This document shows, piece by piece, positions 1,074 through 44,267 of a DNA stretch of 44,267 nt. The notes below the pieces were generated by a model that saw only the letters and a program-made list of their open reading frames with translations, had not been told where the DNA came from and did no database searches. Location: contig JBBIHX010000008.1 in assembly GCA_037446815.1 (NCBI GenBank), positions 1 through 44,267 of the forward strand. The letters run 5' to 3'. This DNA comes from Caldilineae bacterium. GTDB lineage: Bacteria > Chloroflexota > Anaerolineae > DTLA01. Within the stretch, counting starts at the first letter, position 1. The number at the start of each line of letters is the position of its first letter. Made by a program: the position numbers and the translations under genes.

Positions 1074-1198
1074 GGCCTCGCCATCGCCTCGCCGACAACA
1101 TGCCACGCGCCCGCGCTTCGCTTCCCAAGTGGCTCGGCAGCCGCCATTCTTGCATCGCTCGCGATGGCGCGCGAGGAGAGCGCGCCGGCAGCGCCCGC

Positions 1199-1349
1199 GA
1201 GTCGGTTCCAAAGTCTGTTGGCATCCACCGTCATTCTGAGCGGCGAAGCCGCGAAGAATCTCGCTGACCGAGATGCTTCGCCTTCGGCTCAGCATGACAG
1301 AGTGGGGAGGCGGCGCGCGGGACAGACCAACACAGTTTGAAACCAAATC
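1199..1349. mobile_element. MITE copy A1 (23-bp imperfect TIRs, exact 8-bp TSD GCGCCCGC)
   Basis: GAGTCGGTTCCAAAGTCTGTTGG (1199-1221) and CCAACACAGTTTGAAACCAAATC (1327-1349). GCGCCCGC at 1191-1198 and 1350-1357. Internal GTCATTCTGAGC...GCTCAGCATGAC palindrome. Confidence 0.85.
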
Positions 1350-1364
1350 GCGCCCGCCCACAAT

Positions 1365-1393
1365 TTGACAGGTGGCATGCACGCGAATATAAT
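1365..1393 (+). promoter_or_regulatory. sigma70-type promoter of the ABC exporter operon
   Basis: Perfect consensus TTGACA-17 nt-TATAAT. Confidence 0.85.
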
Positions 1394-1507
1394 TAGCAAC
1401 ACTAAATACTAGCGACGCGAAACGACGACCGGACGGATTGCGCCCAGACGGGCAAGCCCCCATCCCGCCGTGTCGGCAAGGCGTCGCATGAACAAGGGAG
1501 TGGCAAC

Positions 1508-2887
1508 ATGAAGCGCAAGACCATCATCATCGTAGCCGCTGTGGTACTGGTAGTAGTCGGCGCGTTGTTTCTGGCGCGCGTCGTTGGCCGTGGGCAGAAC
1601 GCTACGGCCCAAACCGAGACGGTAACCGTGGCGCGGGGCGCTATCACCCAGGTGGTGAATGCTACGGGAAACGTGGCCCCCGCCCGCCGCGCTACGCTCT
1701 CGTTTGAACTTTCGGGCCGTGTGGCCGAGGTGCTGGTGGAAGAAGGGGAAGCCGTCAAGGAGGGCCAGCCCCTAGTGCGCCTGGACTCCGCGGACCTGGA
1801 ATTCGCGCTGCGGAGCGCCGAGGCATCGCTGCGGGCGGCCCAGGCGCGCTATGAGCAGGTCAAGGCCGGCCCCAGTTCGGAGGAGATCGCCGCGGCAGAG
1901 GCGAGCCTTGCCAGCGCCATCGCGTCGTATGAGAAGTTGAAGAAAGGCCCCACGGCCGACGAAGTCGCCATTGCCAAGGCGAACGTGGAGCGGACAGAGG
2001 CCATTCTGAAGCAAGCACAGGCCGCCTACGACCGCATCGCGTGGCGCGGAGATGCCGCCGCTTCGCCCCAGGCGCTCCAGTTGCAGCAGGCCACCATAGA
2101 TTACCAGACGGCGCTGGCCAACTACCGCTTGGCGACGGCCGGCCCCACCGAGAGCGCGCTCAAGGCTGCGGAGGCGCAGATCGCCCAGGCGCGGGCCAAC
2201 CTGGAGCGGCTGAAACGCACGCCCACGCCCGAAGACCTGGCTGTCGCCCAATCGCAGGTGGACTCGGCGCAGGTGGCCGTGGATCAGGCCCGGCGCAGGC
2301 TGGATTCGGCCGTGCTCCGCGCGCCCTTTGACGGCGTGGTGGAGAAGGTGGCCATAGACGAGGGCCAACTGGTGGCAGCAGGGACGCCGGCGGTCATCAT
2401 CGCCGATACATCGGCCTTCCACATCCAGGTGGCGGTGGACGAGATGGACGTGGCGCTGGTGCGCGAGGGGCAGGTGGCGCGCATCACGCTGGACGCGCTG
2501 CCGGATACCGAGATTATGGGGCATGTGGAGCGGATTGGCCTGGCCGGGTCGCAGGCCACGGGCGTCGTTACCTATGACGTGCGCGTGGTCATTGACCCCA
2601 CCGACGCGCCGCTGCGCGCGGGGATGAGCGCGACGCTGGACATCATCGTGGCCGAGAAGGACAACGCGCTGGTTCTGCCCAACCGCGCCATCCGCACCGA
2701 CGGCAAGACCGGCCAGCGGTATGTGGAGGTGCTTCGCGGCGGGCAGGCGGTGCGTGTGGACATCAAGCCGGGCATCCGCGACGAGCGGTACACCGAAATC
2801 CTGGAGGGCCCAGCCGAGGGCGAGACGGTCCTCATCACGACCGTGTCGTCCGGCCAGCAGTTGCGGAGCCTCTTCGGCCCGCAATGA
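1508..2887 (+). CDS. MacA/HlyD-family periplasmic adaptor (membrane fusion protein)
   Basis: N-terminal anchor, lipoyl-like halves (SGRVAEVLVEEGEAVKEGQPL; RAPFDGVV), long coiled coil, LRAGMSA. Confidence 0.9.
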   Translation: MKRKTIIIVAAVVLVVVGALFLARVVGRGQNATAQTETVTVARGAITQVVNATGNVAPARRATLSFELSGRVAEVLVEEGEAVKEGQPLVRLDSADLEFALRSAEASLRAAQARYEQVKAGPSSEEIAAAEASLASAIASYEKLKKGPTADEVAIAKANVERTEAILKQAQAAYDRIAWRGDAAASPQALQLQQATIDYQTALANYRLATAGPTESALKAAEAQIAQARANLERLKRTPTPEDLAVAQSQVDSAQVAVDQARRRLDSAVLRAPFDGVVEKVAIDEGQLVAAGTPAVIIADTSAFHIQVAVDEMDVALVREGQVARITLDALPDTEIMGHVERIGLAGSQATGVVTYDVRVVIDPTDAPLRAGMSATLDIIVAEKDNALVLPNRAIRTDGKTGQRYVEVLRGGQAVRVDIKPGIRDERYTEILEGPAEGETVLITTVSSGQQLRSLFGPQ

Positions 2888-2973
2888 TGGGCAACAGGGC
2901 GCCTTGCCCGCGGCCATCGGGCCGCAAGGGGTGAGGTCTCTCGGCCACGCCGAGCACAGGAAGGCAGCGTACT

Positions 2974-3705
2974 ATGGACAACAATGTGTTGATTGATATG
3001 ACCGATATCTGCAAGGTATACAAGATGGGCGCGGTGGAGGTGCCCGCGTTGTGCGGCGTGAGTTTGCAAATTCGCCGAGGCGAACTCATGGCCATCATGG
3101 GGCCGTCGGGGTCGGGCAAATCCACGCTGATGAACATCATCGGCTGCCTGGACCAGCCCACCAGCGGCCACTATGCCCTGGAGGGCGTGGACGTCTCGCG
3201 CCTGAGCGATGACCAATTGGCAAGCATCCGCAACAAGAAAATCGGGTTCGTGTTCCAGAACTTCAACCTGCTGCGGCGCACCAGCGCGCTGCAGAACGTG
3301 GAACTGCCACTGACGTATGCGGGCGTCTCGGGCGCGGAGCGGCGCAGGCGAGCGGTGGAGGCGCTGGAGGCGGTGGGGCTTGGGCATCGGCTGGATCACC
3401 GGCCCAGCGAACTGTCGGGCGGCGAACAGCAGCGGGTCGCCATCGCGCGAGCGCTGGTCAACGAGCCGTCCATCATCCTGGCCGACGAGCCTACTGGCAA
3501 CCTGGACACGAAATCGGGGCGCGAGATTGTGGGCATCTTCCAGCGCCTGAATCGGGATCGCGGCATCACCGTGGTGTTCGTAACCCACGACCCGGAGATC
3601 GCGCGGCACACCCGGCGCATCGTTCGCCTGCTGGATGGCAAAGTCGTGGGCGATGAGCCGGTGGCCGACATGAAACTTGCCCTGGACGCGGGAGGAGCGG
3701 GATGA
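2974..3705 (+). CDS. ABC transporter ATP-binding protein (MacB/LolD type)
   Basis: Walker A GPSGSGKS, LSGGEQQRVAIAR signature, ADEPTGNLD, VTHD. Confidence 0.95.
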   Translation: MDNNVLIDMTDICKVYKMGAVEVPALCGVSLQIRRGELMAIMGPSGSGKSTLMNIIGCLDQPTSGHYALEGVDVSRLSDDQLASIRNKKIGFVFQNFNLLRRTSALQNVELPLTYAGVSGAERRRRAVEALEAVGLGHRLDHRPSELSGGEQQRVAIARALVNEPSIILADEPTGNLDTKSGREIVGIFQRLNRDRGITVVFVTHDPEIARHTRRIVRLLDGKVVGDEPVADMKLALDAGGAG

Positions 3706-4958
3706 ACATCGCGGAAAGCGTGAAGATCGCCCTCAGGAGCCTTTCGGCCAACAAACTGCGCGCGGCGCTGACTATGCTGGGCATCATCATCGGTGTCGCG
3801 GCGGTGATTACGTTGCTTTCGGTGGGCCAGGGCGTGCAGGTCTTGGTGCAAGAGCAAATTCAGAGCATCGGCTCCAATCTGCTGTTCGTGGTGCCGGGGA
3901 ATCTGTCGGCGCAGTCCAGCGGCAACCTGCGCAGCACCATGGCGACCAGCGCCGTCAACACCCTCACCTACGGCGACGCGCAGGCCATCGCAGACCCCCA
4001 GCGCGTGCCCGACGTGCAGGCCGTGGCCGCGGAATCCTTCACCAACACGACCGTGGTGTACCGCGACCGCGGCATCCGCACATCGGTCAGCGGCACCACC
4101 GTGAACTACCCGCTGGTGCGCAACCACAAGGTGGCCGAAGGGACGTTCTTCAGCGAGGAGGAATTCAACGGCGGCTCCCGCGTGGCGGTGCTGGGCAAAT
4201 CCGCCGCCGACGCGCTATTCCCCGATGGCTACGCCGTGGGCCAGACCATCAAAATCAAGGGGATTTCGTTTCGGGTGATCGGCGTGCTGGCCAGCAAGGG
4301 AGGCACGGGGTTCGGCGGGGTGGACGACTCGGTGTTCGTGCCGCTCACCACGTTCCACACCAAACTGACGCAGCGGCGCTCGGCGTCGGGCGAGTACATC
4401 GTCTCGGCCATCTACGCCCAGGCCGTGAGCGAGAACCGCATGGAAGCGGCGATGGAGCAGATTACCCAACTGCTGCGCGACCGCCACAATATCGTGTACA
4501 CCAGCGACGACGATTTCACGGTCATCAACCAGAAGGATATCCTCAACATCTTCGGGGAAATCACGTCCATCCTGACCATCTTCCTGGGGGCCATTGCGGC
4601 GATCTCGCTCCTGGTGGGCGGAATCGGCATCATGAACATCATGCTGGTGTCGGTAACGGAGCGCACGCGGGAGATCGGCCTGCGCAAGGCCGTGGGCGCG
4701 AGGCGGCGGGATGTGCTGTGGCAGTTCCTGATTGAGGCGATGGTGTTGAGCCTGGCGGGTGGGGTCGTCGGCATCGCGTTGGGGGCGGTGGGGTCGCAGT
4801 TGGTGGGACGGCTATCGGGGTCGCTGACGCCGGTCATCACGGCGTCCACCATCCTGCTGGCGACGGGGTTCTCGGCGGCAGTGGGGCTGTTTTTCGGCAT
4901 CTACCCGGCCAGCCGCGCCGCGGCGCTGAACCCGATAGACGCGCTACGGTACGAATGA
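3702..4958 (+). CDS. ABC transporter permease (MacB/FtsX type)
   Basis: LTMLGIIIGVAAV, GGIGIMNIMLVSVTERTREIGLRKAVGA, C-terminal PIDALRYE. ATGA overlap with the ATPase. Confidence 0.95.
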   Translation: MNIAESVKIALRSLSANKLRAALTMLGIIIGVAAVITLLSVGQGVQVLVQEQIQSIGSNLLFVVPGNLSAQSSGNLRSTMATSAVNTLTYGDAQAIADPQRVPDVQAVAAESFTNTTVVYRDRGIRTSVSGTTVNYPLVRNHKVAEGTFFSEEEFNGGSRVAVLGKSAADALFPDGYAVGQTIKIKGISFRVIGVLASKGGTGFGGVDDSVFVPLTTFHTKLTQRRSASGEYIVSAIYAQAVSENRMEAAMEQITQLLRDRHNIVYTSDDDFTVINQKDILNIFGEITSILTIFLGAIAAISLLVGGIGIMNIMLVSVTERTREIGLRKAVGARRRDVLWQFLIEAMVLSLAGGVVGIALGAVGSQLVGRLSGSLTPVITASTILLATGFSAAVGLFFGIYPASRAAALNPIDALRYE

Positions 4959-4988
4959 CGTTCCCGTGGGGGAAGGACGCGCCGCGTG

Positions 4989-5618
4989 TCAGAATACCGG
5001 CGCGTCCAGCAGCCCCCGCGCCAGGAGTTCCCGCTGAAGTTGCGCGGCGGAGCGAAAGCGTATGGCCTGCATGCCTGCGGCGATGGCGGCAGCGGTGTTG
5101 CGCTCCTTGTCGTCCACCAGCAGGCATTCGGAGATGTCCACCTCGGCGATGATGGCGGTCAAGCGGAAGATGTCGGGGTCGGGTTTCCGAAGGCCCACCT
5201 CGGCGGAGATGACCACGAAGTCAAACAGGTCCAGCAGGGCCAGTTCGCTCAGGAGGGCGCGCAGGCTAACGGTGGCGTTGCTGAGCAGCCCGACCTTGTA
5301 GCGGCGGCGCAGGGCTGCGGCAAGCCGCACAACCCGCCCGTTGAGGCCCTCCAGCGGGGCGCCGCCGTGCCGCAGTTCCTCCAATCCCGCGGGCCATGGC
5401 CCTTCCCATCCGGCCTGTAGCCGCCGGAAGTACTCGTCCTCGCTGATCTTGCCGGTGGACACCAGTTCCCACGTCTCGCCGCTGAAGAAGTACCGGAACA
5501 GCGTCCCCGGCCGCAGCCCGAGCGCGCGGTCGTGTTCCGCCAGGAATCGGCGCGTGCGCCACTCGTAGGTGAAGACCGCGCCGTAGTCAAAGGCGATGGC
5601 TTTCACAACGGGGGCCAT
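4989..5618 (-). CDS. HAD-superfamily hydrolase (subfamily IA)
   Basis: Motifs IAFDYGAV, LLSNA, RKPDPDIF, LVDDKERN. Confidence 0.88.
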   Translation of the reverse strand: MAPVVKAIAFDYGAVFTYEWRTRRFLAEHDRALGLRPGTLFRYFFSGETWELVSTGKISEDEYFRRLQAGWEGPWPAGLEELRHGGAPLEGLNGRVVRLAAALRRRYKVGLLSNATVSLRALLSELALLDLFDFVVISAEVGLRKPDPDIFRLTAIIAEVDISECLLVDDKERNTAAAIAAGMQAIRFRSAAQLQRELLARGLLDAPVF

Positions 5619-5625
5619 GTCGCGT

Positions 5626-6474
5626 CTATCTCCGAATCCGGTGCACCAGCAGGGGAACCGACTGGCCGATGGGCTGAAACCCGAACCGCTGGTACAGTCG
5701 CTGCGAGACGGCGTTGCTGCGCTGGGTGTTGAGGGTGATCCACCACGCGCCTCGCTCCTGGAACAGGCGCATGGCCTCGGCCAGAAGCGCCGCGCCCACG
5801 CCGTGGCCCTGGCGGTCGGGGCGAATGGCGAGGCGGGTCAGGTGCGCGGAGCCGCCCTGAACGTCGCCGTAGGTGTACCCGATGATGCCCTCGTCCTCGG
5901 CCAGCAGGAACACGTCGGTTCCGAGCAGGGCGCGCCGCAGAACGGTCTCGCCGTAGTGCCACTCGGGGGGGAAGGCGCTCTTGTCCACGCGGGCGATGGC
6001 CTCAATGTCCCGCTCCTCGGGACGGCGAATGCGTATGGGGCCTTGCACCTCCGGGGCGGGCACGTCCGCGCCTGCTTTCAGCAGCGTTACCACCGATTCG
6101 GCGACGGTGAAATCGGCCCACAGAAGCCGCCTTGCCAGCCAGTCTTCGGTGCCGACGTAGGTCAGCAGGGATGCGTGGAGTTCGCGCAACCGTGCGATGA
6201 CCAGTTGGAGCAGGGGGGCCAGGAACGCCTCCGCGTCCTCGTCCCGCTGAAACGCCGCGCCGCAGATGTTGTAGACTTCCGCGTTCTGCTGTGAGCAGGC
6301 CAGCACCGCGCAGGCGTGCCCGCGCCTGGACGCCGTGAACAACAGGCCGTTGTCGGCGCACTCGCTCAAGTCCGACAGCCACCGACGGAGGAATCGGAGC
6401 CTCGCCTCGGCGAACAGCCGTTCCACATCAGCCACGTCGGCGGTTGTGGCGCGCTGCACAGTTCCGGCAAACAT
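5626..6474 (-). CDS. GNAT-family N-acetyltransferase (RimI-like C-terminal domain, second degenerate GNAT N-terminal)
   Basis: LAIRPDRQGHGVGAALL acetyl-CoA motif and NAVSQRLYQRFGF. Start moved to MFAGTVQ, which has GAGG upstream and lies downstream of the promoter. Confidence 0.85.
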   Translation of the reverse strand: MFAGTVQRATTADVADVERLFAEARLRFLRRWLSDLSECADNGLLFTASRRGHACAVLACSQQNAEVYNICGAAFQRDEDAEAFLAPLLQLVIARLRELHASLLTYVGTEDWLARRLLWADFTVAESVVTLLKAGADVPAPEVQGPIRIRRPEERDIEAIARVDKSAFPPEWHYGETVLRRALLGTDVFLLAEDEGIIGYTYGDVQGGSAHLTRLAIRPDRQGHGVGAALLAEAMRLFQERGAWWITLNTQRSNAVSQRLYQRFGFQPIGQSVPLLVHRIRR

Positions 6475-6505
6475 CGCTTGCCTCGGTCGTGGGATATTCA
6501 TGGGG

Positions 6506-6534
6506 ATTATGCAACGGAGCGCGGCTTGCGTCAA
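6506..6534 (-). promoter_or_regulatory. sigma70-type promoter of the GNAT-HAD genes
   Basis: Minus strand TTGACG-17 nt-CATAAT. Confidence 0.7.
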
Positions 6535-6550
6535 CCGCGAGGGGCGAACG

Positions 6551-6698
6551 GATTCGGTTCCAAAGTCTGTTGGTTTGTCATTGCGAGGGCGCGGAGCGCC
6601 CGAAGCAATCCCTGGGGCGTGGGGTTGCTTCGCTTCGCTCGCAACGACACACGAGGAGAGTGCGCCTACGGTTCACCAACACAAGATGAGACCGACTC
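6551..6698. mobile_element. MITE copy B1 (TSD GGCGAACG/GGCGAGCG, 7 of 8 match)
   Basis: GATTCGGTTCCAAAGTCTGTTGG ... CCAACACAAGATGAGACCGACTC. Internal GTCATTGCGAG...CTCGCAACGAC palindrome. Confidence 0.82.
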
Positions 6699-6704
6699 GG
6701 CGAG

Positions 6705-6828
6705 CGTGCGACGCACGTAACCCTCCCCGCGCGGGGCTAAAGCCGCCGCGCTACACAACGTGCGACGCACCTCCGAGGTGCGTCGCACGTTGCTGTCGCA
6801 TTCGCGCAGATTCGCGTTATTCGTGGAT
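6705..6828. repeat. Cluster of REP-like elements: GTAG-type hairpin (6729-6754, minus strand), 17-bp perfect palindrome (6756-6792), 9-10-mer repeat (6800-6828)
   Basis: Reverse complement GTAGCGCGGCGGCTTTAGCCCCGCGC. CAACGTGCGACGCACCT-CCG-AGGTGCGTCGCACGTTG. ATTCGCGCAG ATTCGCGTT ATTCGTGGAT. Confidence 0.75.
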
Positions 6829-6852
6829 GACGTCCCGCGCCAGGCAGGCGAA

Positions 6853-6881
6853 TTGACGTTCCCCCGCCCTGCCGATAGAAT
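6853..6881 (+). promoter_or_regulatory. sigma70-type promoter of the EamA-murF/alr-GT4 genes
   Basis: TTGACG-17 nt-TAGAAT, 34 nt before ATG 6916. Confidence 0.7.
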
Positions 6882-6915
6882 GGGGGCACGCATTACGGTG
6901 AGGGGTGAACGTCTC

Positions 6916-7287
6916 ATGTGGAAATCGCTTGCGCTTATCTTCGTTTCGGTGCTGATCGGCGTGTTCGGCCAGTTGAGCCTGAAGACGGGCATGACCCAGG
7001 TGGGCCGCATTGACGCGCAGGCCCTGGCGCAGCCGGTGCAATTGCTGGTGCGCATCTTCACCACGCCCATCATCCTGGCCGGCATCGCGCTGTACATCGT
7101 CGGCACGCTCATCTGGCTCGTCGTCCTCTCGCGGCTTGACTTGAGTTTCGCCTACCCGCTCGTGGCGACAACCTATGTGTTCACGCCGCTGCTGGCCCAT
7201 CTCCTGCTCAAGGAGCCGATTCCCGCCATGCGCTGGGTGGGGATTGCGCTCATCCTCGTCGGCGTCTACATCGTGGCCAGGGCGTGA
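6916..7287 (+). CDS. Small DMT/EamA-family membrane protein (ArnE/ArnF-like)
   Basis: 123 aa, four hydrophobic helices, GQLSLKTG, LSRLDLSFAYP, LKEPI..RWVG. Confidence 0.8.
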   Translation: MWKSLALIFVSVLIGVFGQLSLKTGMTQVGRIDAQALAQPVQLLVRIFTTPIILAGIALYIVGTLIWLVVLSRLDLSFAYPLVATTYVFTPLLAHLLLKEPIPAMRWVGIALILVGVYIVARA

Positions 7288-7315
7288 GCGGGGAAGGGAC
7301 AGCCCGGAGGCGCGC

Positions 7316-9856: not shown

Positions 9857-9868
9857 GGCAGGTGCGCC

Positions 9869-10969
9869 ATGCGCGTGCTGATGCTCTCCAAAGCGTGCCT
9901 GGTGGGCATCTACCAGCGAAAGTTGGAGGAACTGGCCCGCCAACCCGACGTATCGCTGAAGGTGCTGGTGCCGCCTTCGTGGAATGACCGCGGCGGCCGC
10001 GTGCCGCTGGAGCGCGTGCACACCCAGGGCTACGACCTTGAGGCGATCCCCATCGCGTTCAACGGCAACTATCACCTGCACTTCTACCCGACGCTGGCCC
10101 GCCACGTGCGCGCCTTCCGCCCCGACATCGTGCACATTGACGAGGAGCCGTATAACCTCGCCACATGGCACGCGATGCGCCTTTCGCAAGCGGCGGGGGC
10201 AAGGGCGCTGTTCTTCACGTGGCAGAACCTGCTGCGGCGATATCCGCCCCCCTTCCGCTGGATGGAGGCGTACAACTACCGCCATGCCTCCTACGCCATC
10301 GCGGGGAACCAGGAGGCGGTGGCCGTCCTGCGGGCCAAGGGATTCGCCGGGCCCGTGGCCGTCATCCCGCAATTCGGCGTGGACACCGACCGCTTCGCGC
10401 CCGCCGAGAACGCGCCCGACGCGCCCTTCCGCATCGGGTTCATCGGGCGCATGGTGCCGGAGAAAGGCGTCGGCCTGTTGTTGGACGCGGTCAGCGCCAT
10501 GGGGGGCGACTGGCGGCTGGTGTACATCGGCGAAGGCCCCACCCGCGCCGAGCTGGAAGCCCGCGTCCAGGCGATGGGGTTGGCATCTCGGGTCGCCTTT
10601 TACCCGCGCATGCCGTCGGTGGAGATGCCGACGGCCCTGCGGCAGTTGCACGCGCTGGTGCTTCCGTCGTTGTCCCGCCCCAACTGGAAGGAGCAGTTCG
10701 GGCGCGTGCTGATAGAGGCGATGGCGTCCGGTGTGCCCGTGGTGGGTTCTAGCAGCGGCGAGATTCCCAACGTCATCGGCGAGGCCGGGCTGGTGTTCCC
10801 GGAAGGCGACGCGGAGGCGCTTCGGGCCGCGCTGGTGCGCCTTCGCGACGACGGGGATTTGTGGCGCGCCCTGGCGACGGCGGGGCGGGCGCGGGCCTTG
10901 GCCGAATTCACCCACGCGCAGGTGGCGCAGAAGACGTACCGCGTGTACCAGGCGATGCTGGGCCGCTGA
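9869..10969 (+). CDS. GT4 (GT-B) glycosyltransferase
   Basis: FIGRMVPEKGV and EQFGRVLIEAMASGVPVV (EX7E). Confidence 0.92.
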   Translation: MRVLMLSKACLVGIYQRKLEELARQPDVSLKVLVPPSWNDRGGRVPLERVHTQGYDLEAIPIAFNGNYHLHFYPTLARHVRAFRPDIVHIDEEPYNLATWHAMRLSQAAGARALFFTWQNLLRRYPPPFRWMEAYNYRHASYAIAGNQEAVAVLRAKGFAGPVAVIPQFGVDTDRFAPAENAPDAPFRIGFIGRMVPEKGVGLLLDAVSAMGGDWRLVYIGEGPTRAELEARVQAMGLASRVAFYPRMPSVEMPTALRQLHALVLPSLSRPNWKEQFGRVLIEAMASGVPVVGSSSGEIPNVIGEAGLVFPEGDAEALRAALVRLRDDGDLWRALATAGRARALAEFTHAQVAQKTYRVYQAMLGR

Positions 10970-11014
10970 GGACAGGCTTGTGGCCGCGGATGAACGCGAA
11001 GCCACGCGAAGGGG

Positions 11015-11049
11015 AACGTGCGACGCACTTCCGAAGTGCGTCGCACGTT
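11015..11049. repeat. 16-bp perfect palindrome, second copy of the 6756-6792 element
   Basis: AACGTGCGACGCACTT-CCG-AAGTGCGTCGCACGTT. Confidence 0.85.
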
Positions 11050-11061
11050 GTCCTTCTGTTA

Positions 11062-11200
11062 TCATGCTGAGCCGAAGGCGATACGCCCTCGCCCTTCGGG
11101 AGAGGGCTGGGGTGAGGGGCGAGATGCTTCGCCTTCGGCTCGGCATGACGGAGCGGGGAGGCGGCGTGCGGGGCAGACCAACACAAGATGAAACCGACTC
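11062..11200. mobile_element. Truncated MITE A3 (right TIR only) carrying a CCCTC-type repeat
   Basis: The 3' part matches A1 (GAGATGCTTCGCCTTCGGCTC..CATGAC.GAG.GGGGAGGCGGCG) and ends in CCAACACAAGATGAAACCGACTC. No left TIR found. Confidence 0.7.
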
Positions 11201-11207
11201 CCACCCC

Positions 11208-11351
11208 GACTCGGTTCCATCTTGTGTTGGTGAAACGCATGGACACTCTCCTCGTGTGTCGTTGCGAGCGAAGCGAAGCAACCTCACGCCCCGGCGATTG
11301 CTTCGGGCGCTGCGCGCCCTCGCAATGACAAACAGACTTTGAAACCGACTC
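11208..11351. mobile_element. MITE copy B2 (inverted relative to B1), flanked by CCACCCC
   Basis: GACTCGGTTCCATCTTGTGTTGG ... AACAGACTTTGAAACCGACTC. CCACCCC at 11201-11207 and 11352-11358. Confidence 0.82.
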
Positions 11352-11366
11352 CCACCCCCGCGCGAC

Positions 11367-11395
11367 TGGCACGAAAGTGTAAAAAGGGGTATAAT
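11367..11395 (+). promoter_or_regulatory. sigma70-type promoter of the J-domain/gyrA/lpdA/lipA run
   Basis: TGGCAC-17 nt-TATAAT. Confidence 0.6.
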
Positions 11396-11430
11396 CGTAA
11401 GCGAATGCCTTTGATAGGTGTGTATCCGAA

Positions 11431-12510
11431 GTGGGCAAGAAACTGGTGGACTACTATCGGATCCTGCAGGTGGATCCGGAAGCCGACCCCGACGTGGTGG
11501 AGGCGGCATATAAACGACTGGCGCGCAAGTACCACCCTGACCTCAACCCCGAGCCGGATGCGAACCAGCGCATGCAGGAGATCAACATCGCCTATGAGGT
11601 GCTGGGAGACCCCGAGAAGCGGGCGGAGTACCATCAGGAGTGGCAGCGCGTGTACGGCACGCGGCACTACGCGGGCGTGGCGGCGACTACCCCATGGCTG
11701 GGAGGCGTCCGCCCCACCGTTACCCTGACGCCCGAGCGCGTGCAGTTTGACCGCGTGCAGCGAGGCCAGATCGTTGAGGCCGACGTAACGGTGTCCCTGA
11801 GCCGCGCCGGCCGATTCCACGGTGAGATGCTCCCCCATCAGTCCTGGATTCGGGCGAAGGTCGCCAGCCGCCGCAAGGGCGCCGTGGTCATCCGCATCAC
11901 AGTGGACACCTCGGACCTGCGCGGCGGGGTTACCTACGAGGGGAGCGTGGCCATCACGTCGCTCCTGTACGGCACGGTGCTCATCCCGGTGCGGGTCACC
12001 GTCGCGCCGGAGCCGCGCCCCATCCTCAAGGTAGAGCCCCTGTGGCTGGACGCGGGCACGGTGCGCCGCTCCGATCCGCCCATAGAGATGACGCTGCATG
12101 TGCACAACGTGGGCGAGGGCGACTTTGAGGGCGAAATCCGCGTGAAGCACGGTTGGCTTTCGGTCAACCGCGACGAGTTCCGAGGCGACCGCACCGAAAT
12201 CGTCGTAACGCTGACGCCGTCGGGGCTGAAGCCCGGGCGCAGTTACACCGGCAAGATTGAAATCGTCTCCAACGGCGGCATGGCGACGGTGCCCGTGAAG
12301 GTCATGGTGCAGCAGGAACTGCCCGACCTTCCGCCCGCCGACAGCGACGAATACTGGCCCGCCGTCCTGTCGTACCTCAAGCCGGAGAACGCATGGGAGA
12401 AGGACTTCGTAGCGCAGATGAAGGCCCTCTCCAAGATGCGCGGATGGAGACCGGCGGCGAGCCAGCAATCCACCATCCTCTACATGTTCGCCCGAGATTT
12501 GGACAAGTAA
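11431..12510 (+). CDS. J-domain (DnaJ class C) protein with two BACON/Ig-like repeats
   Basis: DYYRILQV...[13 protein letters not shown] (HPD motif). Two beta-rich repeats (..[33 protein letters not shown]). No Zn-finger. Confidence 0.75.
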
Positions 12511-12546
12511 ACACCCCTACCCCAAGGAGCAGATGTAGGCAACCTT

Positions 12547-16003: not shown

Positions 16004-16023
16004 ACTCAATCAAGGAGGAAATC

Positions 16024-20927: not shown

Positions 20928-20956
20928 ACTATACACTTACGCCCCGCGCGTGTCAA
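20928..20956 (-). promoter_or_regulatory. sigma70-type promoter of rodZ-rimO
   Basis: Minus strand TTGACA-17 nt-TATAGT. Confidence 0.78.
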
Positions 20957-20971: not shown

Positions 20972-21121
20972 GAGTCGGTTTCATCTTGTGTTGGTGAACC
21001 GTAGGCGCACTCTCCTCGTGTGTCATTGCGAGCGGAGCGAAGCAATCCCACGCCCCGGAGATTGCTTCGGGCACTGCGTGCCCTCGCAATGACAGCCACC
21101 AACAAACTTTGGAACCGAATG
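20972..21121. mobile_element. MITE copy B3 (exact 8-bp TSD GGCCGAGG)
   Basis: GAGTCGGTTTCATCTTGTGTTGG ... CCAACAAACTTTGGAACCGAATG. GGCCGAGG at 20964-20971 and 21122-21129. Confidence 0.87.
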
Positions 21122-28022: not shown

Positions 28023-28196
28023 GACACGGTTCCAAACTGTGTTGGTCTGTCCCGCGCGCTGCCTCCCCACTCCGTCATGCTGAGCCGAAGGCGACACGCC
28101 CTCACCCTTCGGGAGAGGGTCGGGGTGAGGGGTGAGATTCTTCGCTCTTCGCCGCTCAGAATGACGGTAGATGCCAACCGACTTTGGAAACGACTC
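28023..28196. mobile_element. MITE copy A2 (inverted relative to A1, exact 8-bp TSD GCCAATGG)
   Basis: GACACGGTTCCAAACTGTGTTGG ... CCAACCGACTTTGGAAACGACTC. GCCAATGG at 28015-28022 and 28197-28204. Central CCCTC-type repeat at 28099-28132. Confidence 0.87.
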
Positions 28197-37029: not shown

Positions 37030-38616
37030 CTACGGGCAGGCTGCCTCGGCCAACAGGATACCACCATCCGCGTACAGCCGCAAATGAAAGGGGCCTTGGC
37101 CAGGGGGCAATTGCCGCACCCAAGGTCGCCCAGGGCCGAGGGCGACCTGCTCCGACAGCACGCTCTCGCCCGCGGCGGTTACGCGCAGCGTGGCCTGGCG
37201 CTCCACGGGGCTATACGCGGCGACCATCACGCGCCCTCCCTCGCGCTCCACGCGCACGACGGCCTCACGGGTCGCCGCCGCGAAGCCGCCCAGCCCCGCG
37301 ATGGGAATCCACGTCTCGCTCCACTCCAGCGACTCGCCGGGGGCAAGCAGCCGATCATCGGCGGGCCAGAAGGAGCGGTTGGCGCCTGCCCACAGTTCCA
37401 CATACGATGAGCCGTCGTCGGCGAAGGTGGCAAGGTCGGGGAAGTCCGCGCCGAAGCCGAAGAGTTTGGCGCCGCCGATGCCCGACAGTACGCGCGCCAC
37501 GCCCAGGTCGGCGCGGGTATCGTAGACGCCGACGAACGCGGGCAGCGGGTCGGTGGCGAAGACGCCCAGCCAGTTGCGCCATTCGGCGTATCGGCTCAGG
37601 TCGCGACCGCCGGCCAGGGGCCACGACAGGGTCTCACCCTCGCGGGGAAGGGCTGCGTCGCCCGTGCTGTGCACGATGACCTGCGCCGCCGGGAAGATGA
37701 GCCGCACATCGGGACCCACCGTCGCGCCGCCCGGGGCCAGCATGGCGTTGGCCCAGAACTGCACGGGCAGCGGGCAGGCGCCGATGTTCGTGAGGCGCGG
37801 CGTTACGGTGAAACGCCCCTCACCCGCGGCAAGGGTTACGGTAACCTCCGCCTGGAGGTCGCCGCTTGTGCGACGCAGGACGATGGCCACGCCATCGCCC
37901 TGCCGCTGGGTTGCCGTATCCCACGGCGCGCCCCACTCATACCCGTGCTCGTGCACGGGGAACGCCCATTCCAGGCCGCCGGCGGCGAGCCACCAGTTCT
38001 CGTCTCGCGGCAGCGGCCCCCAGTAGGTGGGCTTCAGCACGCGGTTGTTGTAGAACAGCGCCTGGCCGGTGGGCTTGTACGCGCATTGGTACAGCCGCCC
38101 GCCCAATTCGGGCAGAAACGCCAGCCGCAGGTACTCGTTTTCCACGATCAGGGCGCGGTACGTTTGGGGCGCAGGCGACGGGCGGGACGCCTCGTACTCG
38201 GCGCGGTTGAGCCGCACCACCGCCCCGCCGTATACGGGGTCGGGCGCGGCCGACAGGTGCGCCGCAAACGGATACGCGAGAACGGTCATGGCCTGTTCGT
38301 ACACACGCACCTCCGGGGCACGGCTTGGCGTTGGGATAGGGGTAGTGGGGGTAGGGCTCTGGCCTGCCATGGGCGACGGGGTGGGGGCGGGGGTCAGACC
38401 TGCCCCTGCGGTCTGCGTGGGCGACGGGGTGGGGGCAGGGCTTCGGCTGGCGCCTACGGTGCGCGTGGGCGACGGGGTGGGGGCGGGGCTCTGGCCTGCC
38501 CCTGCGGTCTCTGTGGGCGACGGCGCGACGGTGGGCGACGCGGGTACGTTGGCCGTGCAAGCCGCGCAGAGGAGCGCCAGGCAGGTTATCCCCATGGCGA
38601 GAACCCGTACCTTCAT
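37030..38616 (-). CDS. DUF5107-like putative lipoprotein with Pro/Thr repeat linker
   Basis: MKVRVLAMGITCLALLCAAC near-lipobox. ENEYLRLAFLPELGGRLY, GGLEWAFP, WANA resemble DUF5107 (from memory, not searched). Confidence 0.68.
   Translation of the reverse strand: MKVRVLAMGITCLALLCAACTANVPASPTVAPSPTETAGAGQSPAPTPSPTRTVGASRSPAPTPSPTQTAGAGLTPAPTPSPMAGQSPTPTTPIPTPSRAPEVRVYEQAMTVLAYPFAAHLSAAPDPVYGGAVVRLNRAEYEASRPSPAPQTYRALIVENEYLRLAFLPELGGRLYQCAYKPTGQALFYNNRVLKPTYWGPLPRDENWWLAAGGLEWAFPVHEHGYEWGAPWDTATQRQGDGVAIVLRRTSGDLQAEVTVTLAAGEGRFTVTPRLTNIGACPLPVQFWANAMLAPGGATVGPDVRLIFPAAQVIVHSTGDAALPREGETLSWPLAGGRDLSRYAEWRNWLGVFATDPLPAFVGVYDTRADLGVARVLSGIGGAKLFGFGADFPDLATFADDGSSYVELWAGANRSFWPADDRLLAPGESLEWSETWIPIAGLGGFAAATREAVVRVEREGGRVMVAAYSPVERQATLRVTAAGESVLSEQVALGPGRPWVRQLPPGQGPFHLRLYADGGILLAEAACP
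38340..38530 (-). repeat. Coding tandem repeat, about 48-bp unit (TAGAGQSPAPTPSPT-like x3-4)
   Basis: GGGCGACGGGGTGGGGGC recurs three times at 48-nt spacing. Confidence 0.75.
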
Positions 38617-38761: not shown

Positions 38762-40855
38762 TTGCACACCACAAGTCGGCTCCTTCTCGCGCTGGCGATA
38801 ATCGGTTTCATCGCCGCTGCCGTGCTGATACCCTTCGCCCCGGTCCTCCCCGCGTCGGCGGATGAGGGGGCGATGTTCTACCTACACTACGACGTGGACT
38901 ACTCCGCGGTTCCCGAGTGGGTGCGCATCCGCGACCTGACGCTGAAGGTGCGCGTGGGCCAGGCCGAGAAGGTGGAGGTCATTGCGGATGGGCGAGTCAT
39001 CCCCGCCGACTACGATTCCGCCGCCGGCTGGGTAACGTTCACCACCAACGCCACGCGGGTGGACATCGGCATCCACGGCCTGGCGACTCCCGCCGAGCAG
39101 GTGGGCGAGGTGCGCAAGGCGGCCCTGCGCGGCGGCAAGCGCTGGGCCTACAGCCTCACCTTTGACGACGGCCGTCTGTCCGTGTGGCAGTATGGCAAAC
39201 CCCTGCTGGACCGACTGGGCTACCGTGCGGGCGTCGCCATCATCGGCGAGTGGATGCTGCCGCCGGACTTCTCGCTTGGAACCTGCGGGGATAGCATCAC
39301 CTGGCGCGGCAATCCCGACAGCCCTCTCACCTGGGACTACATGGATACGACCCGTGTCGCGGCCCTGCTGGCGTCCGGCTGGAGCGTGTACAACCATGGC
39401 TTCTTCCACAACAGCCCGGAATCCATGCCCGGGTGCGTCGTGGAAAACATCGCCAAATGCAGCGAGGCGTTGGCGTATGCGCTGGGTGGATACCGCACGC
39501 TGGTGTACACGGCGTACCAGAACCACGAAGGCTTGCGCGACCTGGCCATCGCAAACTATCCTACGCTGGGCTTGCCGATCATCCAGGCCAACGGGGGCGG
39601 CGCCATCGCGGTGGATAGCATCGCCTGGGGGAACCTGCCGTTTGTGCTGCAGCGGTGGGACGTGGGGCGCCCCCGCAGCGATCGGCCCGACACCAGCGGC
39701 GCCATCTACTACATGGACGAGGCTCACCAGAAGGCGGTAAACTACCCGAGCCTGCACTTCTGGCTCAGCCTGCATGGGCATAATGTGGAGCGGAACGACG
39801 TGGCAGGGTCGTCGCTGGACTACCTGCACTTCACCTACGGGCCAGGCGGCACCGATGAGGTGTGGGTGGCGCCCGCCGATGAGGTGTTCCAGTATCTGGC
39901 GACGCGGGATCATGCCGTGGTAACCCGCGTGGCATCGCGCGAGGTTGCCGTGGTGTCGCGTGTGCCCCAGATTCGCCAGGTCGCCTTACGGCAGGGCTGG
40001 CGCGGCTACACCGGCGCCCAGGATACCTACATTGACTCCGGCCAGCCGAAGAAGAACTTCAACGCGCCGGGCGACTCGGCCATTCTGCGTGTTACGTCCC
40101 CGGATAGGAAGGCGGCGCTTCTAGCATTTGACGTGTCTTCGCTGCCGGCCAATGCCCGCATCCTCAGGGCCACCTTGGGCTTCTACGTCCAGAAACATTC
40201 CAACGAGGGCGAGATTGATGTGTCGGCCTACATCCTGCGCAAGGCGTGGCATCCCGACGAGGCGACGTGGGAGCGAGCCTCGGCATCCGCTCCCTGGGGC
40301 GCGTATGGGGCCAACAGCAGCAATGGCGACGGTCGCGACAGGGACGCCAACGCCACCGACCTGCGGCCCCTGCGGTGGTTCCGCTACAAGGACATCAACA
40401 CAGACGAAGAGTTCTTGATAGATGATGCCACGTGGTACTCGCTGGACATCACGCCCGCGGTGCGCGAGTGGGTGGCCAATCCCGACAGCAACTTTGGCGT
40501 CATCCTGAAGGCGACGGGCGGGTCCACCGAGGTGCGAATCGCCGCGTCGGAGTGGCGGGACGTGAACCTGCGCCCGTGCCTGGTGATCACGTACATGGAG
40601 CCGGAGGTGGTGCCGCCATCGCAGCCGAGCGCAACGCCGCAGGTTTCGCCCACGGCAAGCAGCACGCCCACGGCAACGCCAATCCCCACCGAGACGGGCA
40701 CGCCTGCCACCACGCCGACGGGTACGCCCACGGCCACGCCCACGCCGGAGCCGACGGCCACACCGACGCCCACGGCCACCGTTCCCGCTGCCCCGCGCAA
40801 CCGGCTATTCCTGCCGCTGGTTTCCGCAAATCACCCCTATCCTGTACTTCGCTGA
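38762..40855 (+). CDS. Secreted polysaccharide deacetylase (NodB-like) + DNRLRE domain protein
   Basis: TTG start after AAAGGTG. Signal peptide ending ASA, SLTFDDG, NHGFFH. DTYI..LLAFDVS..ATW..DITPAVREW..NFG..RPCLVITY. PT linker, then RLFLPLVS. Confidence 0.78.
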   Translation: MHTTSRLLLALAIIGFIAAAVLIPFAPVLPASADEGAMFYLHYDVDYSAVPEWVRIRDLTLKVRVGQAEKVEVIADGRVIPADYDSAAGWVTFTTNATRVDIGIHGLATPAEQVGEVRKAALRGGKRWAYSLTFDDGRLSVWQYGKPLLDRLGYRAGVAIIGEWMLPPDFSLGTCGDSITWRGNPDSPLTWDYMDTTRVAALLASGWSVYNHGFFHNSPESMPGCVVENIAKCSEALAYALGGYRTLVYTAYQNHEGLRDLAIANYPTLGLPIIQANGGGAIAVDSIAWGNLPFVLQRWDVGRPRSDRPDTSGAIYYMDEAHQKAVNYPSLHFWLSLHGHNVERNDVAGSSLDYLHFTYGPGGTDEVWVAPADEVFQYLATRDHAVVTRVASREVAVVSRVPQIRQVALRQGWRGYTGAQDTYIDSGQPKKNFNAPGDSAILRVTSPDRKAALLAFDVSSLPANARILRATLGFYVQKHSNEGEIDVSAYILRKAWHPDEATWERASASAPWGAYGANSSNGDGRDRDANATDLRPLRWFRYKDINTDEEFLIDDATWYSLDITPAVREWVANPDSNFGVILKATGGSTEVRIAASEWRDVNLRPCLVITYMEPEVVPPSQPSATPQVSPTASSTPTATPIPTETGTPATTPTGTPTATPTPEPTATPTPTATVPAAPRNRLFLPLVSANHPYPVLR

Positions 40856-43785: not shown

Positions 43786-43810
43786 GTGGACCTCACGGGC
43801 CGTGGCGCAG

Positions 43811-44083
43811 TTATCCGCCCGCCACCGGCTCAAATAGGTAGAGCGTGTCCCCATCCTTGAGCGGGAAGGAAGCAGCGCGTCCCCGCGGCACGATGCGACT
43901 GTTGACGAACAGCGAGTAGGGCACGGCGGGCGCCGCCAGCATCGGCTCCAGGTCGGGCCAGCGGGCTGCCATCGCCGCCAGACAGTCCGACACTGTGGCC
44001 CCGTCGGGCAGTTCCAACACGATGGGGCCTTCCTCCTCAATCTTGGAGCGGAATAGCGGATCCAGTTTCAGCGTAACGCGCAT
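43811..44083 (-). CDS. MoaD/ThiS-family ubiquitin-like protein
   Basis: 90 aa beta-grasp pattern (LPDGATVSD, LFVN, LKDGD) ending PVAGG-stop. Confidence 0.85.
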   Translation of the reverse strand: MRVTLKLDPLFRSKIEEEGPIVLELPDGATVSDCLAAMAARWPDLEPMLAAPAVPYSLFVNSRIVPRGRAASFPLKDGDTLYLFEPVAGG

Positions 44084-44153
44084 GGCAACCGTCTGCCCCC
44101 GTATCCAGGGTTGTGTACACTCGTTGACTAGGTAGAGACCGGTCTTGCGCCCA

Positions 44154-44182
44154 ATTCTAGCATTCTTGGCCGCGTCGGGCAA
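44154..44182 (-). promoter_or_regulatory. sigma70-type promoter of the MoaD-like operon
   Basis: Minus strand TTGCCC-17 nt-TAGAAT with extended TGn. Confidence 0.62.
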
Positions 44183-44196
44183 GTTACGGTGCGGGC

Positions 44197-44267
44197 GAGT
44201 CGGTTCCAAAGTCTGCTGGCATTTGTCATTGCGAGGGCGCGGAGCGCCCGAAGCAATCTCCGGGGCG
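44197..44267. mobile_element. MITE copy B4, cut by the window end
   Basis: GAGTCGGTTCCAAAGTCTGCTGG followed by GTCATTGCGAGGGCGCGGAGCGCCCGAAGCAATC, as in B1. Confidence 0.8.

Follow-up and report, generated by a model that had tools for sequence, protein, structure and literature searches.

A miniature inverted-repeat transposable element associated with predicted sigma70-type promoters at a fixed distance in Anaerolineae

Insertion sequences (IS) of Mutator type that generate direct repeats of 8-9 bp are described as entering sigma-A promoter regions at a point 15-17 bp upstream of the -35 box (PMC3942029). Two groups are of particular interest for the present work: (i) the TnGBS ICEs and the ISLre2 family (p-MULT 3; Brochet 2009; Guerillot 2013, 2014; PMC3942029), mainly from Firmicutes, which are autonomous IS or ICEs and insert in one orientation with IRR by the promoter, and (ii) the ISKra4 group (p-MULT 4: ISKra2/4/5/6 and others), which inserts upstream of promoters in both orientations and has been reported in Chloroflexi (PMC3942029). 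In the same source, two-way insertion is linked to ends that are 83-100% complementary, whereas insertion of IS256 is reported to be random, without a promoter peak. Among eukaryotes, the integrase of the LTR retrotransposon Ty3 selects Pol III start sites through TFIIIB/TFIIIC by a proven protein tether, at a fixed and very short distance from the initiation complex (PMC3942029).

The repeats described here share with TnGBS and ISLre2 direct repeats in the 8-9-bp range, a position close upstream of the -35 hexamer (14-16 bp in this genus) and, in the IS that we regard as their partner, a Mutator-superfamily DDE transposase. They differ in belonging to Anaerolineae and in representing a miniature inverted-repeat transposable element (MITE). 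As for Ty3, the distance is short and fixed and the position is a safe harbour, but a tether is hypothetical for the MITE. Our search of the literature on MITEs, ISKra4, Mutator, promoter insertion and Chloroflexi/Anaerolinea found no description of a MITE with a fixed promoter distance.

The window, that is the whole stretch of 44,267 nucleotides that was analysed, carries six two-ended or contig-cut copies of the MITE and a seventh with a single end. Allowing up to 3 mismatches, the 23-nt terminal repeat was found in it six times, where 100 shuffles lead one to expect 0.00, and a second terminal repeat type was recognised at the opposite element ends by direct reading of the sequence. Direct reading also bore out the coordinates, duplications and -35 distances that the first-pass annotation had given for the six copies A1, B1, B2, B3, A2 and B4, including its choice of A2 as the weakest case; the one-ended copy beside B2 had escaped it. 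The features are as follows.

1199..1349: MITE copy A1, 151 bp, type A, IRL-type end left and IRR-type end right
1191-1198 and 1350-1357: 8-bp duplication of A1, GCGCCCGC
1365..1393, + strand: promoter-like site, TTGACA (1365-1370), 17-nt spacer, TATAAT (1388-1393), 15 nt past the A1 end
1508-2884: HlyD-like gene downstream of the A1 promoter-like site
6551..6698: MITE copy B1, 148 bp, type B
6543-6550 and 6699-6706: duplication of B1, GGCGAACG and GGCGAGCG respectively, with a single mismatch
6506..6534, - strand: promoter-like site, TTGACG (6534-6529), 17-nt spacer, CATAAT (6511-6506), 16 nt off the B1 end
start at 6501: GNAT gene at the B1 promoter-like site, apparently leaderless
about 11062..11200: one-ended MITE copy adjoining B2, type A interior, right end only (11178-11200), left boundary approximate
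11208..11351: MITE copy B2, 144 bp, type B, in tandem with the one-ended copy 11062..11200
duplication of B2: CCACCCC(C), one base ambiguous; CCACCCC lies between the one-ended copy and B2 and is repeated past B2
11367..11395, + strand: promoter-like site, TGGCAC (11367-11372), 17-nt spacer, TATAAT (11390-11395), 15 nt past B2
11431-12507: DnaJ-domain gene downstream of the B2 promoter-like site
20972..21121: MITE copy B3, 150 bp, type B
20964-20971 and 21122-21129: duplication of B3, GGCCGAGG
20928..20956, - strand: promoter-like site, TTGACA (20956-20951), 17-nt spacer, TATAGT (20933-20928), 15 nt off B3
20877-20098: RodZ-like gene downstream of the B3 promoter-like site
28023..28196: MITE copy A2, 174 bp, type A
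28015-28022 and 28197-28204: duplication of A2, GCCAATGG
left flank of A2: -35-like TTGCAC at 15 nt without a matching -10 box, and a TGnTATACT box further on
44197..44267: MITE copy B4, interrupted by the contig end
44154..44182, - strand: promoter-like site, TTGCCC (44182-44177), 17-nt spacer, TAGAAT (44159-44154), 14 nt off B4
44040-42067: open frame (DUF6909) downstream of the B4 promoter-like site

The first-pass annotation had proposed to look for empty sites in related genomes. Among four congeners (G001-G004) of the present genome (G000), sites that lack this MITE but keep the promoter were found for three of these copies. The promoter of copy A1 is kept in G001, G003 and G004 with the MITE absent. 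That of B1 is conserved in G001, G002 and G003, and the G003 site is free of any repeat. The B2 promoter is likewise conserved in G001, G002 and G003, where the aligned upstream stretch holds no MITE terminal repeat and only the promoter side aligns. The flanks of B3 lie apart or on different contigs in the sister genomes, and no clean empty site emerges for this copy. Contigs of four DNA runs compared with window positions 1-20000 break at MITE edges (for example start 1350, end 6543 and start 11355), none of them spanning an empty site.

A terminal-repeat search of the whole 3.19-Mb assembly, also proposed beforehand, gave 619 matches, from which the number of elements is about 300, or some 1.4% of the genome. 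The density had been put at roughly one copy per 7 kb; the window has about one per 6 kb and the genome as a whole about one per 10-11 kb. Ends could be paired in 202 cases, most of these pairs measuring exactly 150 bp. Element length varies from 144 to 175 bp and the ends are 23 bp long (5'-G...C-3'), the two end types being identical at 17 of 23 positions (74%), compared with the 83-100% complementarity linked to two-way insertion (PMC3942029). Two subfamilies comprise 139 and 46 of 187 elements. Among the unpaired ends of this assembly, 179 of 182 have a MITE-type interior, and the other three are variants or, next to toxin-antitoxin-like ORFs, a solo end.

The 8-bp target duplication claimed for the window holds throughout the genome: among 187 elements the two copies agree perfectly in 76 and differ at one base in 39 and at two in 22 (61 more in all), while an exact 9-bp duplication was seen in only 2 elements. 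Neighbouring elements are separated by 8 bp in 18 cases, by 7 bp in 4 and by 9 bp in 3. Genome-wide, as had been said of the window copies, the duplicated 8-mers have no sequence in common. The repeats of the window are thus copies of one MITE, with terminal inverted repeats, a fixed 8-bp duplication, small size, high copy number and an interior free of transposase; an autonomous counterpart that shares these ends exists in other Chloroflexota and is absent from the assemblies of the genus.

Classical bacterial MITEs include Correia/CREE and RUP, and reportedly MITEAba12. The present family resembles them in being short and non-coding, with the inverted repeats of a parent IS, target duplications and many copies.

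What sets it apart is its position. Promoters are here consensus predictions (sigma70-type hexamers) made from sequence alone; a search for RNA runs covering window positions 1-10000 found none. Sites with at least 9 of 12 matches lie at offset 15 in 59 of 359 flanks, whereas the same scan gave 6, 11 and 4 flanks at offsets 14, 16 and 17 and 0-2 at all remaining offsets. With a threshold of at least 8 of 12, offsets 14-16 account for 120 of 383 flanks, against 2-3 at each of five other offset triplets; random genome positions had such a site in 16 of 5000 cases. The sigma-A consensus derived from 200 copy-flagged flanks is TTG.C. - 17 - TAtAAT. An outward ORF lies beyond 82 of 107 promoter-facing flanks versus 28 of 87 opposite ones. 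Of 182 complete elements, 71 fall short of the 8-of-12 threshold at offsets 14-16; some of these are inner members of arrays, some lie by extended -10 promoters and some are without recognisable signal.

The sharp peak of predicted promoters at offset 15, far above random positions, places the family in the functional class of promoter-upstream-targeting elements, in agreement with the 14-16 bp read from the window copies, and supports the view that this MITE is a non-autonomous element inserting at a fixed distance upstream of predicted sigma70-type promoters. The end facing the promoter is of IRL type in 60 cases and of IRR type in 48, so that the two-way use suspected from the window is general. 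In this respect the MITE resembles the ISKra4 group and differs from TnGBS/ISLre2, and in having a promoter peak at all it is unlike IS256 (PMC3942029).

The full-length element with the same ends was found in other Chloroflexota. It is an IS of 1.52-1.55 kb, common in that phylum, whose 23-bp ends match those of the MITE and which encodes a single transposase of 429-437 amino acids. At 32 of 64 transposase loci the gene is flanked by an IRL-type end on its upstream side and an IRR-type end on its downstream side, with 1400-1750 bp between them, and one partner IRL differs from that of the MITE by a single mismatch. Of the 27 copies in which the 8-bp duplication could be evaluated, 11 have it in exact form. 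A promoter-like site accompanies 28 of 82 IS-end flanks versus 1.4 +/- 1.2 after shuffling. The offsets of transposase-bearing copies are mixed: 5 (9 flanks), 4 (3), 17 (4), 15 (3) and 13 (2). Other lineages have about 5 nt to the -35 box instead of 15, and their duplication overlaps the box (offsets about 3-9).

The partner transposase passed the Pfam model Transposase_mut (PF00872; 34.8 bits, cut-off 21) and failed the NCBIfam IS256 model (NF033543), with 39.6 bits against a curated cut-off of 150. Residues D180, D243 and E363 are invariant in a 20-sequence alignment (alignment A1) and at least 90% conserved in a 33-sequence one (alignment A3); C264 is invariant in the former only and H267 in both. 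We infer that the three acidic residues form the catalytic triad and that C-x2-H is the accompanying signature. The AlphaFold model had a pLDDT of 90.7; a first structure model, from the 20-sequence alignment, reached 48 and was discarded. Foldseek gave 5 matches at E<=0.001, each of them a chain of the ISCth4 transposase (PDB 6xg8, 6xgx, 6xgw), an IS256-type enzyme that also makes 8-bp duplications. The best of them has E=6.8e-10, with a TM score of about 0.5 across some 400 columns. When PDB sequences were searched with a profile, the only match was to 6xg8, at E=0.21. A Pfam score above the gathering threshold, a DDE triad with C/D-x2-H after the second D and an IS256-type fold are marks of the Mutator superfamily. 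Inverted repeats of 23 bp and direct repeats of 8 bp fall within the published ranges for it (18-39 bp ending in C, and 8-9 bp; PMC3942029).

If this transposase family is the one that moves the MITE, as the shared ends suggest, its target is probably found via the complex of promoter and RNA polymerase holoenzyme, or via the DNA bend that this complex makes, a model proposed earlier for TnGBS. The same element and transposase could instead read the DNA directly, recognising a TTG-type -35 word together with local DNA shape and without any role of the polymerase, and selection would later purge insertions at chance TTGs within genes. We regard this as possible, though less likely. Close to the cut only T16, T17 and G18 are strongly conserved (0.90, 0.88 and 0.72), as direct reading would have it, and the overlap of the duplication with the -35 box in other lineages is awkward for a site occupied by sigma region 4. 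On the other side, the duplicated 8-mers have no common sequence, and among the 144 of 598 flanks with TTG at offset 15, 101 (70%) are followed at the right spacing by a -10 box that matches at 5 or more of its 6 positions, compared with 0.9% of 20,000 TTGs drawn at random from the genome and 16.6% of the 1117 exact TTGACA sites of the genome. Given this excess, reading of the -35 word alone would need very strong later selection.

Within the genus, the partner was searched for by several routes. A tblastn search of the present genome with the partner transposase gave nothing below E=1.6, and a profile search of G000-G004 with alignment A3 gave weak matches only, all to other families: those of G001 and G002 are ordinary IS256 transposases, and the one in G003 belongs to another IS, 1.2 kb long, whose 25-bp ends are its own. 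No long pair of MITE ends in G000 encloses a transposase. Where the partner type does occur, its copies are mostly on contigs of about 1.5 kb, and the assemblies of the genus are incomplete. Since the partner is absent from this assembly and from those of four congeners, mobilisation in trans rests on the shared ends in other genomes. The earlier proposal of a Mutator-like transposase acting in trans thus stands as regards a Mutator-type IS with the same ends, and the genus itself yielded none.

The first-pass annotation had also named ISLre2 and ISKra4 as the likely type of transposase, and the MITE might depend on an enzyme of one of these families, both published as promoter-targeting, the ISKra4 group inserting both ways (PMC3942029). 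ISKra4 is common in the class (123 of 301 genomes match), and the N-terminal half of the partner, with its zinc ribbon, aligns remotely with that of ISKra4-family proteins (hhalign probability 76.9%). However, the end-bearing IS matches neither the ISKra4 (NF033572) nor the ISLre2 (NF033529) NCBIfam model at E<=1, 0 of 30 ISKra4-family loci of the class have MITE-like ends, and no ISKra4 member occurs in the five genus genomes. The ISLre2 model found nothing in this genome, a weak blank since it was silent in all 14 control genomes. As judged by the NCBIfam models, the partner is a lineage apart from ISLre2 and ISKra4 with an IS256-like fold; use of both orientations is a further departure from ISLre2/TnGBS. 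Dependence of the MITE on either family is therefore very unlikely.

Taken together, these observations make it probable that the family is a MITE with the ends of an IS, moved in trans by a Mutator-type transposase into sites upstream of promoters. The MITE would have kept only the two 23-bp IS ends, IRL and IRR, around an unrelated filler able to form hairpins. The single DDE transposase that the partner IS encodes belongs to the Mutator superfamily; it has a zinc ribbon at its N-terminus and a catalytic fold like that of IS256/ISCth4, and it carries the C-x2-H signature. Acting in trans, it would bind the MITE ends and integrate them through an 8-bp staggered cut, with either end free to face the promoter. 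In this genus the duplicated 8 bp span the interval from 15 to 8 nt upstream of the -35 hexamer, or about -51 to -44 from the transcription start if the latter is assumed to lie some 7 nt past the -10 box. A cut there would place the insertion just outside the core promoter and leave the promoter intact. Renewed insertion at the same promoter would produce tandem arrays with 8-bp spacers.

A more ambitious proposal is offered only tentatively, and we rate it as doubtful. The transposase may dock on promoter-polymerase complexes, or on their DNA bend, in one of two registers, set by lineage and one helical turn apart, which lie on the upstream side of the -35 box at distances of about 5 nt and about 15 nt. 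The MITE may have spread in this way to about 200 promoters, replacing the distal UP-element/activator zone, and may now act as a module insulating or tuning transcription, its copies amounting to a promoter map.

MITEs usually find refuge in intergenic DNA, and essentially random insertion, patterned only by selection that tolerates copies upstream of promoters, might seem to suffice, but such selection would permit any upstream position, yet 59 flanks fall at offset 15 versus 0-2 at offsets 18-39, and adjacent elements lie exactly 8 bp apart in 18 cases, which leaves this account barely credible. That the repeats are non-mobile regulatory modules spread by recombination would suit their place in the usual UP-element/activator zone, and other hairpin repeats cluster upstream of promoters in sister genomes, but we consider it extremely improbable given the terminal inverted repeats, the site-specific 8-bp duplications that copies generally do carry, the MITE-free sites of sister species and the transposase-bearing IS with the same ends.

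In bacteria, promoter-targeted transposition was known from TnGBS/ISLre2 and from the ISKra4 group, both of them Mutator lineages. The partner IS adds a third, unclassified and with an IS256-like fold, in a phylum of mostly uncultured bacteria, and we found no other MITE described as obeying a promoter rule. The roughly 300 copies of the present MITE, which keep an almost constant distance of 15 nt to the -35 box, illustrate the extent of multiplication that a safe harbour upstream of promoters allows. The lineages at about 15 and about 5 nt form a natural comparison, which could reveal how a transposase reads a promoter. Each copy marks a probable promoter (200 flanks), providing a promoter map for an uncultured organism, and the transposase family is a possible tool for integration just outside promoters.

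The internal modules of the MITE recall Ssn-related motifs (SRM/NTS hairpins) in general architecture only: the published degenerate SRM pattern (PMC11893778) showed no enrichment, with 14 matches as opposed to the 32-51 counted in three shuffles, and the window had none. Hairpin repeats of other kinds were also seen to cluster upstream of promoters in the sister genomes.

A reading of all six places in the window confirmed what the first-pass annotation gives for the MITE: the element boundaries, the duplications in the flanks and the spacing from the -35/-10 pairs. The start of A2 is corrected to 28023. The six copies are present as listed, but a seventh, one-ended copy (about 11062-11200) directly abuts B2. 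Allowing up to 3 mismatches, the window contains 6 occurrences of the 23-nt end, against 0 expected by chance.

MITE copies in the window, with distance from element end to promoter
1199-1349, A1: 15 nt to a -35/-10 pair
6551-6698, B1: 16 nt to a -35/-10 pair
11208-11351, B2: 15 nt to a -35/-10 pair
20972-21121, B3: 15 nt to a -35/-10 pair
28023-28196, A2: 15 nt to a lone TTGCAC without a -10 box
44197 to contig end, B4: 14 nt to a -35/-10 pair

The genes downstream of the tagged promoters code for an HlyD-like fusion protein, a GNAT acetyltransferase, a DnaJ-domain protein, a RodZ-like protein and a DUF6909 protein, and are ordinary in kind.

The assembly to which the window belongs as contig C8 (G000; 3.19 Mb, 265 contigs, 65% G+C), assigned through public protein names to uncultured Anaerolineae of the Chloroflexota, contains two end types that differ mid-repeat, AAAGTCTG-type (IRL-type) and ATCTTGTG-type (IRR-type). 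Together they give 619 matches and 202 pairs, mostly exactly 150 bp long, with about twenty at 172-175 bp. A total of 176 of the 619 matches are no more than 200 bp away from a contig end; the MITE repeat breaks the assembly, and the true copy number is therefore about 300 elements or more. The subfamilies A and B proved to be real: B comprises 139 of 187 elements (median pairwise identity 88%) and A 46 (77%), with one IRL-type and one IRR-type end per element in both. The 8-bp target duplication extends genome-wide, being exact in 76 of the 187 elements, with one mismatch in 39 and two in 22; a 9-bp duplication is exact in only 2.

The position of these elements relative to promoters was examined by reading 70 nt outward from every end and scoring TTGACA-(16-18)-TATAAT at each offset, the offset being the distance from element end to -35 box. 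Sites with at least 9/12 consensus matches were found at offset 15 in 59 of 359 flanks, at offsets 14, 16 and 17 in 6, 11 and 4, and at every remaining offset between 0 and 39 in 0-2 flanks each. The proposed 14-16 nt rule thus holds genome-wide: at a threshold of 8/12, 120 of 383 flanks have a site at these offsets, against 2-3 flanks for each of five other offset triplets and 16 of 5000 random genome positions. Among 182 elements with two readable flanks, such a site is present on one side in 108, on both in 3 and on neither in 71. The last group includes inner members of tandem arrays, extended -10 promoters with a poor -35 box, sites shifted by a few bases, and some elements with nothing recognisable. 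TTG occurs at offset 15 in 144 of 598 flanks (offset 16, 43; offset 14, 13), and 101 of these 144 also have a -10 box (at least 5/6 matches, spacer 16-18), as do 0.9% of 20,000 random genomic TTGs and 16.6% of the 1117 exact TTGACA sites of G000. The flank signal is a whole promoter, as predicted by consensus, rather than the TTG word alone. An outward ORF (high GC3, at least 150 codons) follows within 40-300 nt in 82 of 107 promoter-facing flanks and in 28 of 87 opposite flanks. As had been proposed, either end can face the promoter, the IRL-type 60 times and the IRR-type 48 times.

In the stretch 6499-6534 of the window (minus strand), the ATG of the GNAT gene lies at 6501, about 5 nt past the predicted -10 box, which suggests that its mRNA is leaderless. 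Across the genome, roughly 18 of the 82 promoter-facing cases have an outward ORF whose start is no more than about 8 nt from the -10 box.

Sites with the promoter kept and the MITE absent, as expected of a mobile element, were found in related genomes for A1, B1 and B2. At the A1 site, the congeners G001, G003 and G004 have the same promoter (TTGACA, spacer, TATAAT, then TAGCGACA) between the same flanking genes and no MITE. The two divergent promoters of the B1 site are kept in all four species (G000-G003): 14 nt separate the two -35 boxes in G003 with nothing inserted, G000 has the MITE and other hairpin repeats, and in G001 and G002 this MITE is absent while other repeats are present. The B2 promoter is kept in G001, G002 and G003, and similarity to G000 extends only a few bases past the -35 box in the upstream direction, up to the point at which the MITE starts. 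As read from these alignments, the MITE arrived at these sites by insertion, not by co-inheritance. Adjacent elements are separated by 8 bp in 18 cases, by 7 bp in 4 and by 9 bp in 3, as would be expected of re-insertion 15 nt from the same -35 box; B2 and its one-ended neighbour are an example.

No candidate driver is encoded anywhere in the G000 assembly. The ISLre2 model has no match in G000 or in 14 control genomes, and the ISKra4 model none in G000-G004. The end pattern is present in 50 of the 401 genomes scanned from the class, with 4-45 matches in each of the four congeners and two ends about 1.54 kb apart in five places. The full-length element with matching ends around a transposase, implied by mobilisation in trans, was thereby found in other Chloroflexota, for example at L043, an IS locus of G115 and one of the five places, with an intact 437-aa ORF between the ends. 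This ORF passes the Pfam Mutator-family cut-off (34.8 bits vs 21), falls far below the NCBIfam cut-offs for IS256 (39.6 vs 150) and ISH6 (38.2 vs 240), and has no match to the NCBIfam ISKra4 and ISLre2 models. The observation made in the first-pass annotation is confirmed and its interpretation supported; a Mutator-type DDE transposase stands, but its assignment to ISLre2 or ISKra4 is corrected.

Close relatives of the ORF number more than 1600 and for the most part sit on contigs of about 1.5 kb, a size that explains why binned genomes lack them; the few named ones are called 'transposase', 'transposase-like protein' or 'hypothetical protein' of Anaerolineae. Clustering at 50% gave 606 representatives at E<=0.001 and 147 at E<=1e-30; among the 150 representatives listed, most are fragmentary and full-length ones number only about ten. 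In one-genome-per-species contigs the family has 64 loci, chiefly in MAGs of Chloroflexota; a few are on short contigs that were binned under other phyla. In 32 of the 64 the gene is flanked by an IRL-type end on its upstream side and an IRR-type end on its downstream side, the two ends lying 1400-1750 bp apart, and one IS IRL is a single base from that of the MITE; the MITE is therefore IRL and IRR around foreign filler. The transposase has an invariant N-terminal CxxC...HxCxxC, invariant D180 and D243, and also C264-x2-H267 and E363. With divergent relatives in the alignment, its structure was modelled at pLDDT 90.7, and each of the 5 matches of the predicted fold at E<=0.001 is a chain of ISCth4, a transposase of the IS256 family. 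The N-terminal half aligns remotely (hhalign probability 76.9%) with ISKra4-family proteins of the same class.

The intact IS of G115 (L061/L043, G115:C246:1-2093) is bordered at each end by an outward promoter-like site in the 15-nt register: one is TTGCCC-17-TATAAT, at 15 nt, and the other is weaker, with an extended -10 box. Its flanks lack a matching 8-bp duplication (6 mismatches), as could arise if two copies had recombined, or if the IS had inserted between divergent promoters and the sequence had later changed. A different small IS of about 1.2 kb with its own 25-bp ends (L178, G003:C144:25602-28272, at about 1357-2581) encodes a 347-356-aa zinc-ribbon transposase with weak matches to ISL3 (64 bits) and IS66 (62 bits) against cut-offs of 180, and is another unclassified element of the genus.

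Of the 27 transposase-bearing copies that could be evaluated, 11 have an exact 8-bp duplication. A site of at least 9/12 lies within 20 nt in 28 of 82 distinct IS end-flanks, against 1.4 +/- 1.2 after shuffling, at mixed offsets: 5 (9 flanks), 4 (3), 17 (4), 15 (3) and 13 (2). Split by genome, G000, G001, G002 and G075, another genome of the class, show offsets 15-16. The distant Anaerolineae genome G249 (L155-L173) has a MITE of its own, 86-110 bp long and with the same ends, whose duplication is exact in 16 of 20 copies; there and in G251 offsets are about 3-9, with a mode of 4-5, so that the first bases of the -35 box fall within the duplication. The predicted sites place the two registers about one helical turn apart, samples outside G000 being small. 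The interior of the G249 MITE contains 2-6 tandem copies of the 8-nt unit (A/T)GAACGTT, which accounts for its length classes.

These results show integration with an 8-bp stagger at a position set relative to a complete predicted sigma-A-type promoter; it has no orientation bias and can recur at the same promoter. Promoter-upstream targeting as a principle is already published: PMC3942029 describes 8-9-bp repeats for Mutator-type bacterial transposases and, for TnGBS/ISLre2 and the ISKra4 group, insertion 15-17 bp upstream of -35 boxes. It reports that IS256, TnGBS, ISLre2 and the Mycoplasma ICEs have circular forms, with circular-intermediate transposition proposed for all five families, and gives a proposed contact of TnGBS with the polymerase initiation complex, by analogy with Ty3. 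The putative partner transposase of the MITE may read promoters in a similar way. The cut in the genus of G000 would fall at about -51 to -44. This is the upstream edge of the holoenzyme footprint. The element end would take the place of the distal UP and activator zone and leave the core promoter untouched. The main rival, direct reading of the -35 word from DNA followed by selection, seems to us rather unlikely; the lineages with register 5 fit it rather better. Our literature search revealed no MITE obeying a promoter-distance rule and no description of two registers. Nor did it reveal, ISfinder and the IS tables of PMC3942029 lying outside it, an IS lineage failing the IS256 cut-off and unmatched by the ISKra4 and ISLre2 models; this lineage may already be named in ISfinder.

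Several other repeats lie in the window.

Other repeats in the window
1230-1300, 6573-6650, 11062-11132, 18366-18500, 28075-28145: hairpin modules starting GTCATTGCGAG, GTCATTCTGAGC or GTCATGCTGAGC
6755-6791, 11015-11051: palindrome ACAACGTGCGACGCACCTCCGAGGTGCGTCGCACGTT, arms 92% complementary
6800-6835, 18317-18352: ATTCGCG..GATTCGCGTTATTCGTGGAT repeat
18497-18551, 18652-18706: exact 55-nt direct repeat, 155 nt apart
20397-20474, 25502-25555, 38370-38523, 40719-40781: G+C-rich GGGGTCGGCGTTGCGGTCGGC-like repeats, 12-nt and 48-nt periods

The hairpin modules make up the MITE filler, occur also at L003 (G004:C8:74034-77117), and stand free of MITEs as well, for example at 18366-18500; their three starting words have 371, 205 and 159 copies in G000, respectively. 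In sister species, tandem arrays of the modules, with units of about 80 bp, lie immediately upstream of a promoter. Their architecture resembles that of Neisseria NTS (CGTCATT, palindrome, AATC), but they are not matched by the published SRM pattern. The ACAACGTGCGACGCACCTCCGAGGTGCGTCGCACGTT palindrome adjoins MITE copies in the window and MITE ends on other contigs. At the site orthologous to B1, the gap upstream of the promoter is empty in G003 and is filled in G000, G001 and G002 by the ATTCGCG..GATTCGCGTTATTCGTGGAT repeat; DNA upstream of -35 boxes in this genus therefore collects several unrelated repeat families. Each 55-nt copy contains a 30-nt palindrome, TGTACGGGCGACCGGCCGATCGCCCGTACA. 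The GGGGTCGGCGTTGCGGTCGGC-like repeats fall inside long open frames, on either strand, and probably represent coding repeats of low complexity.
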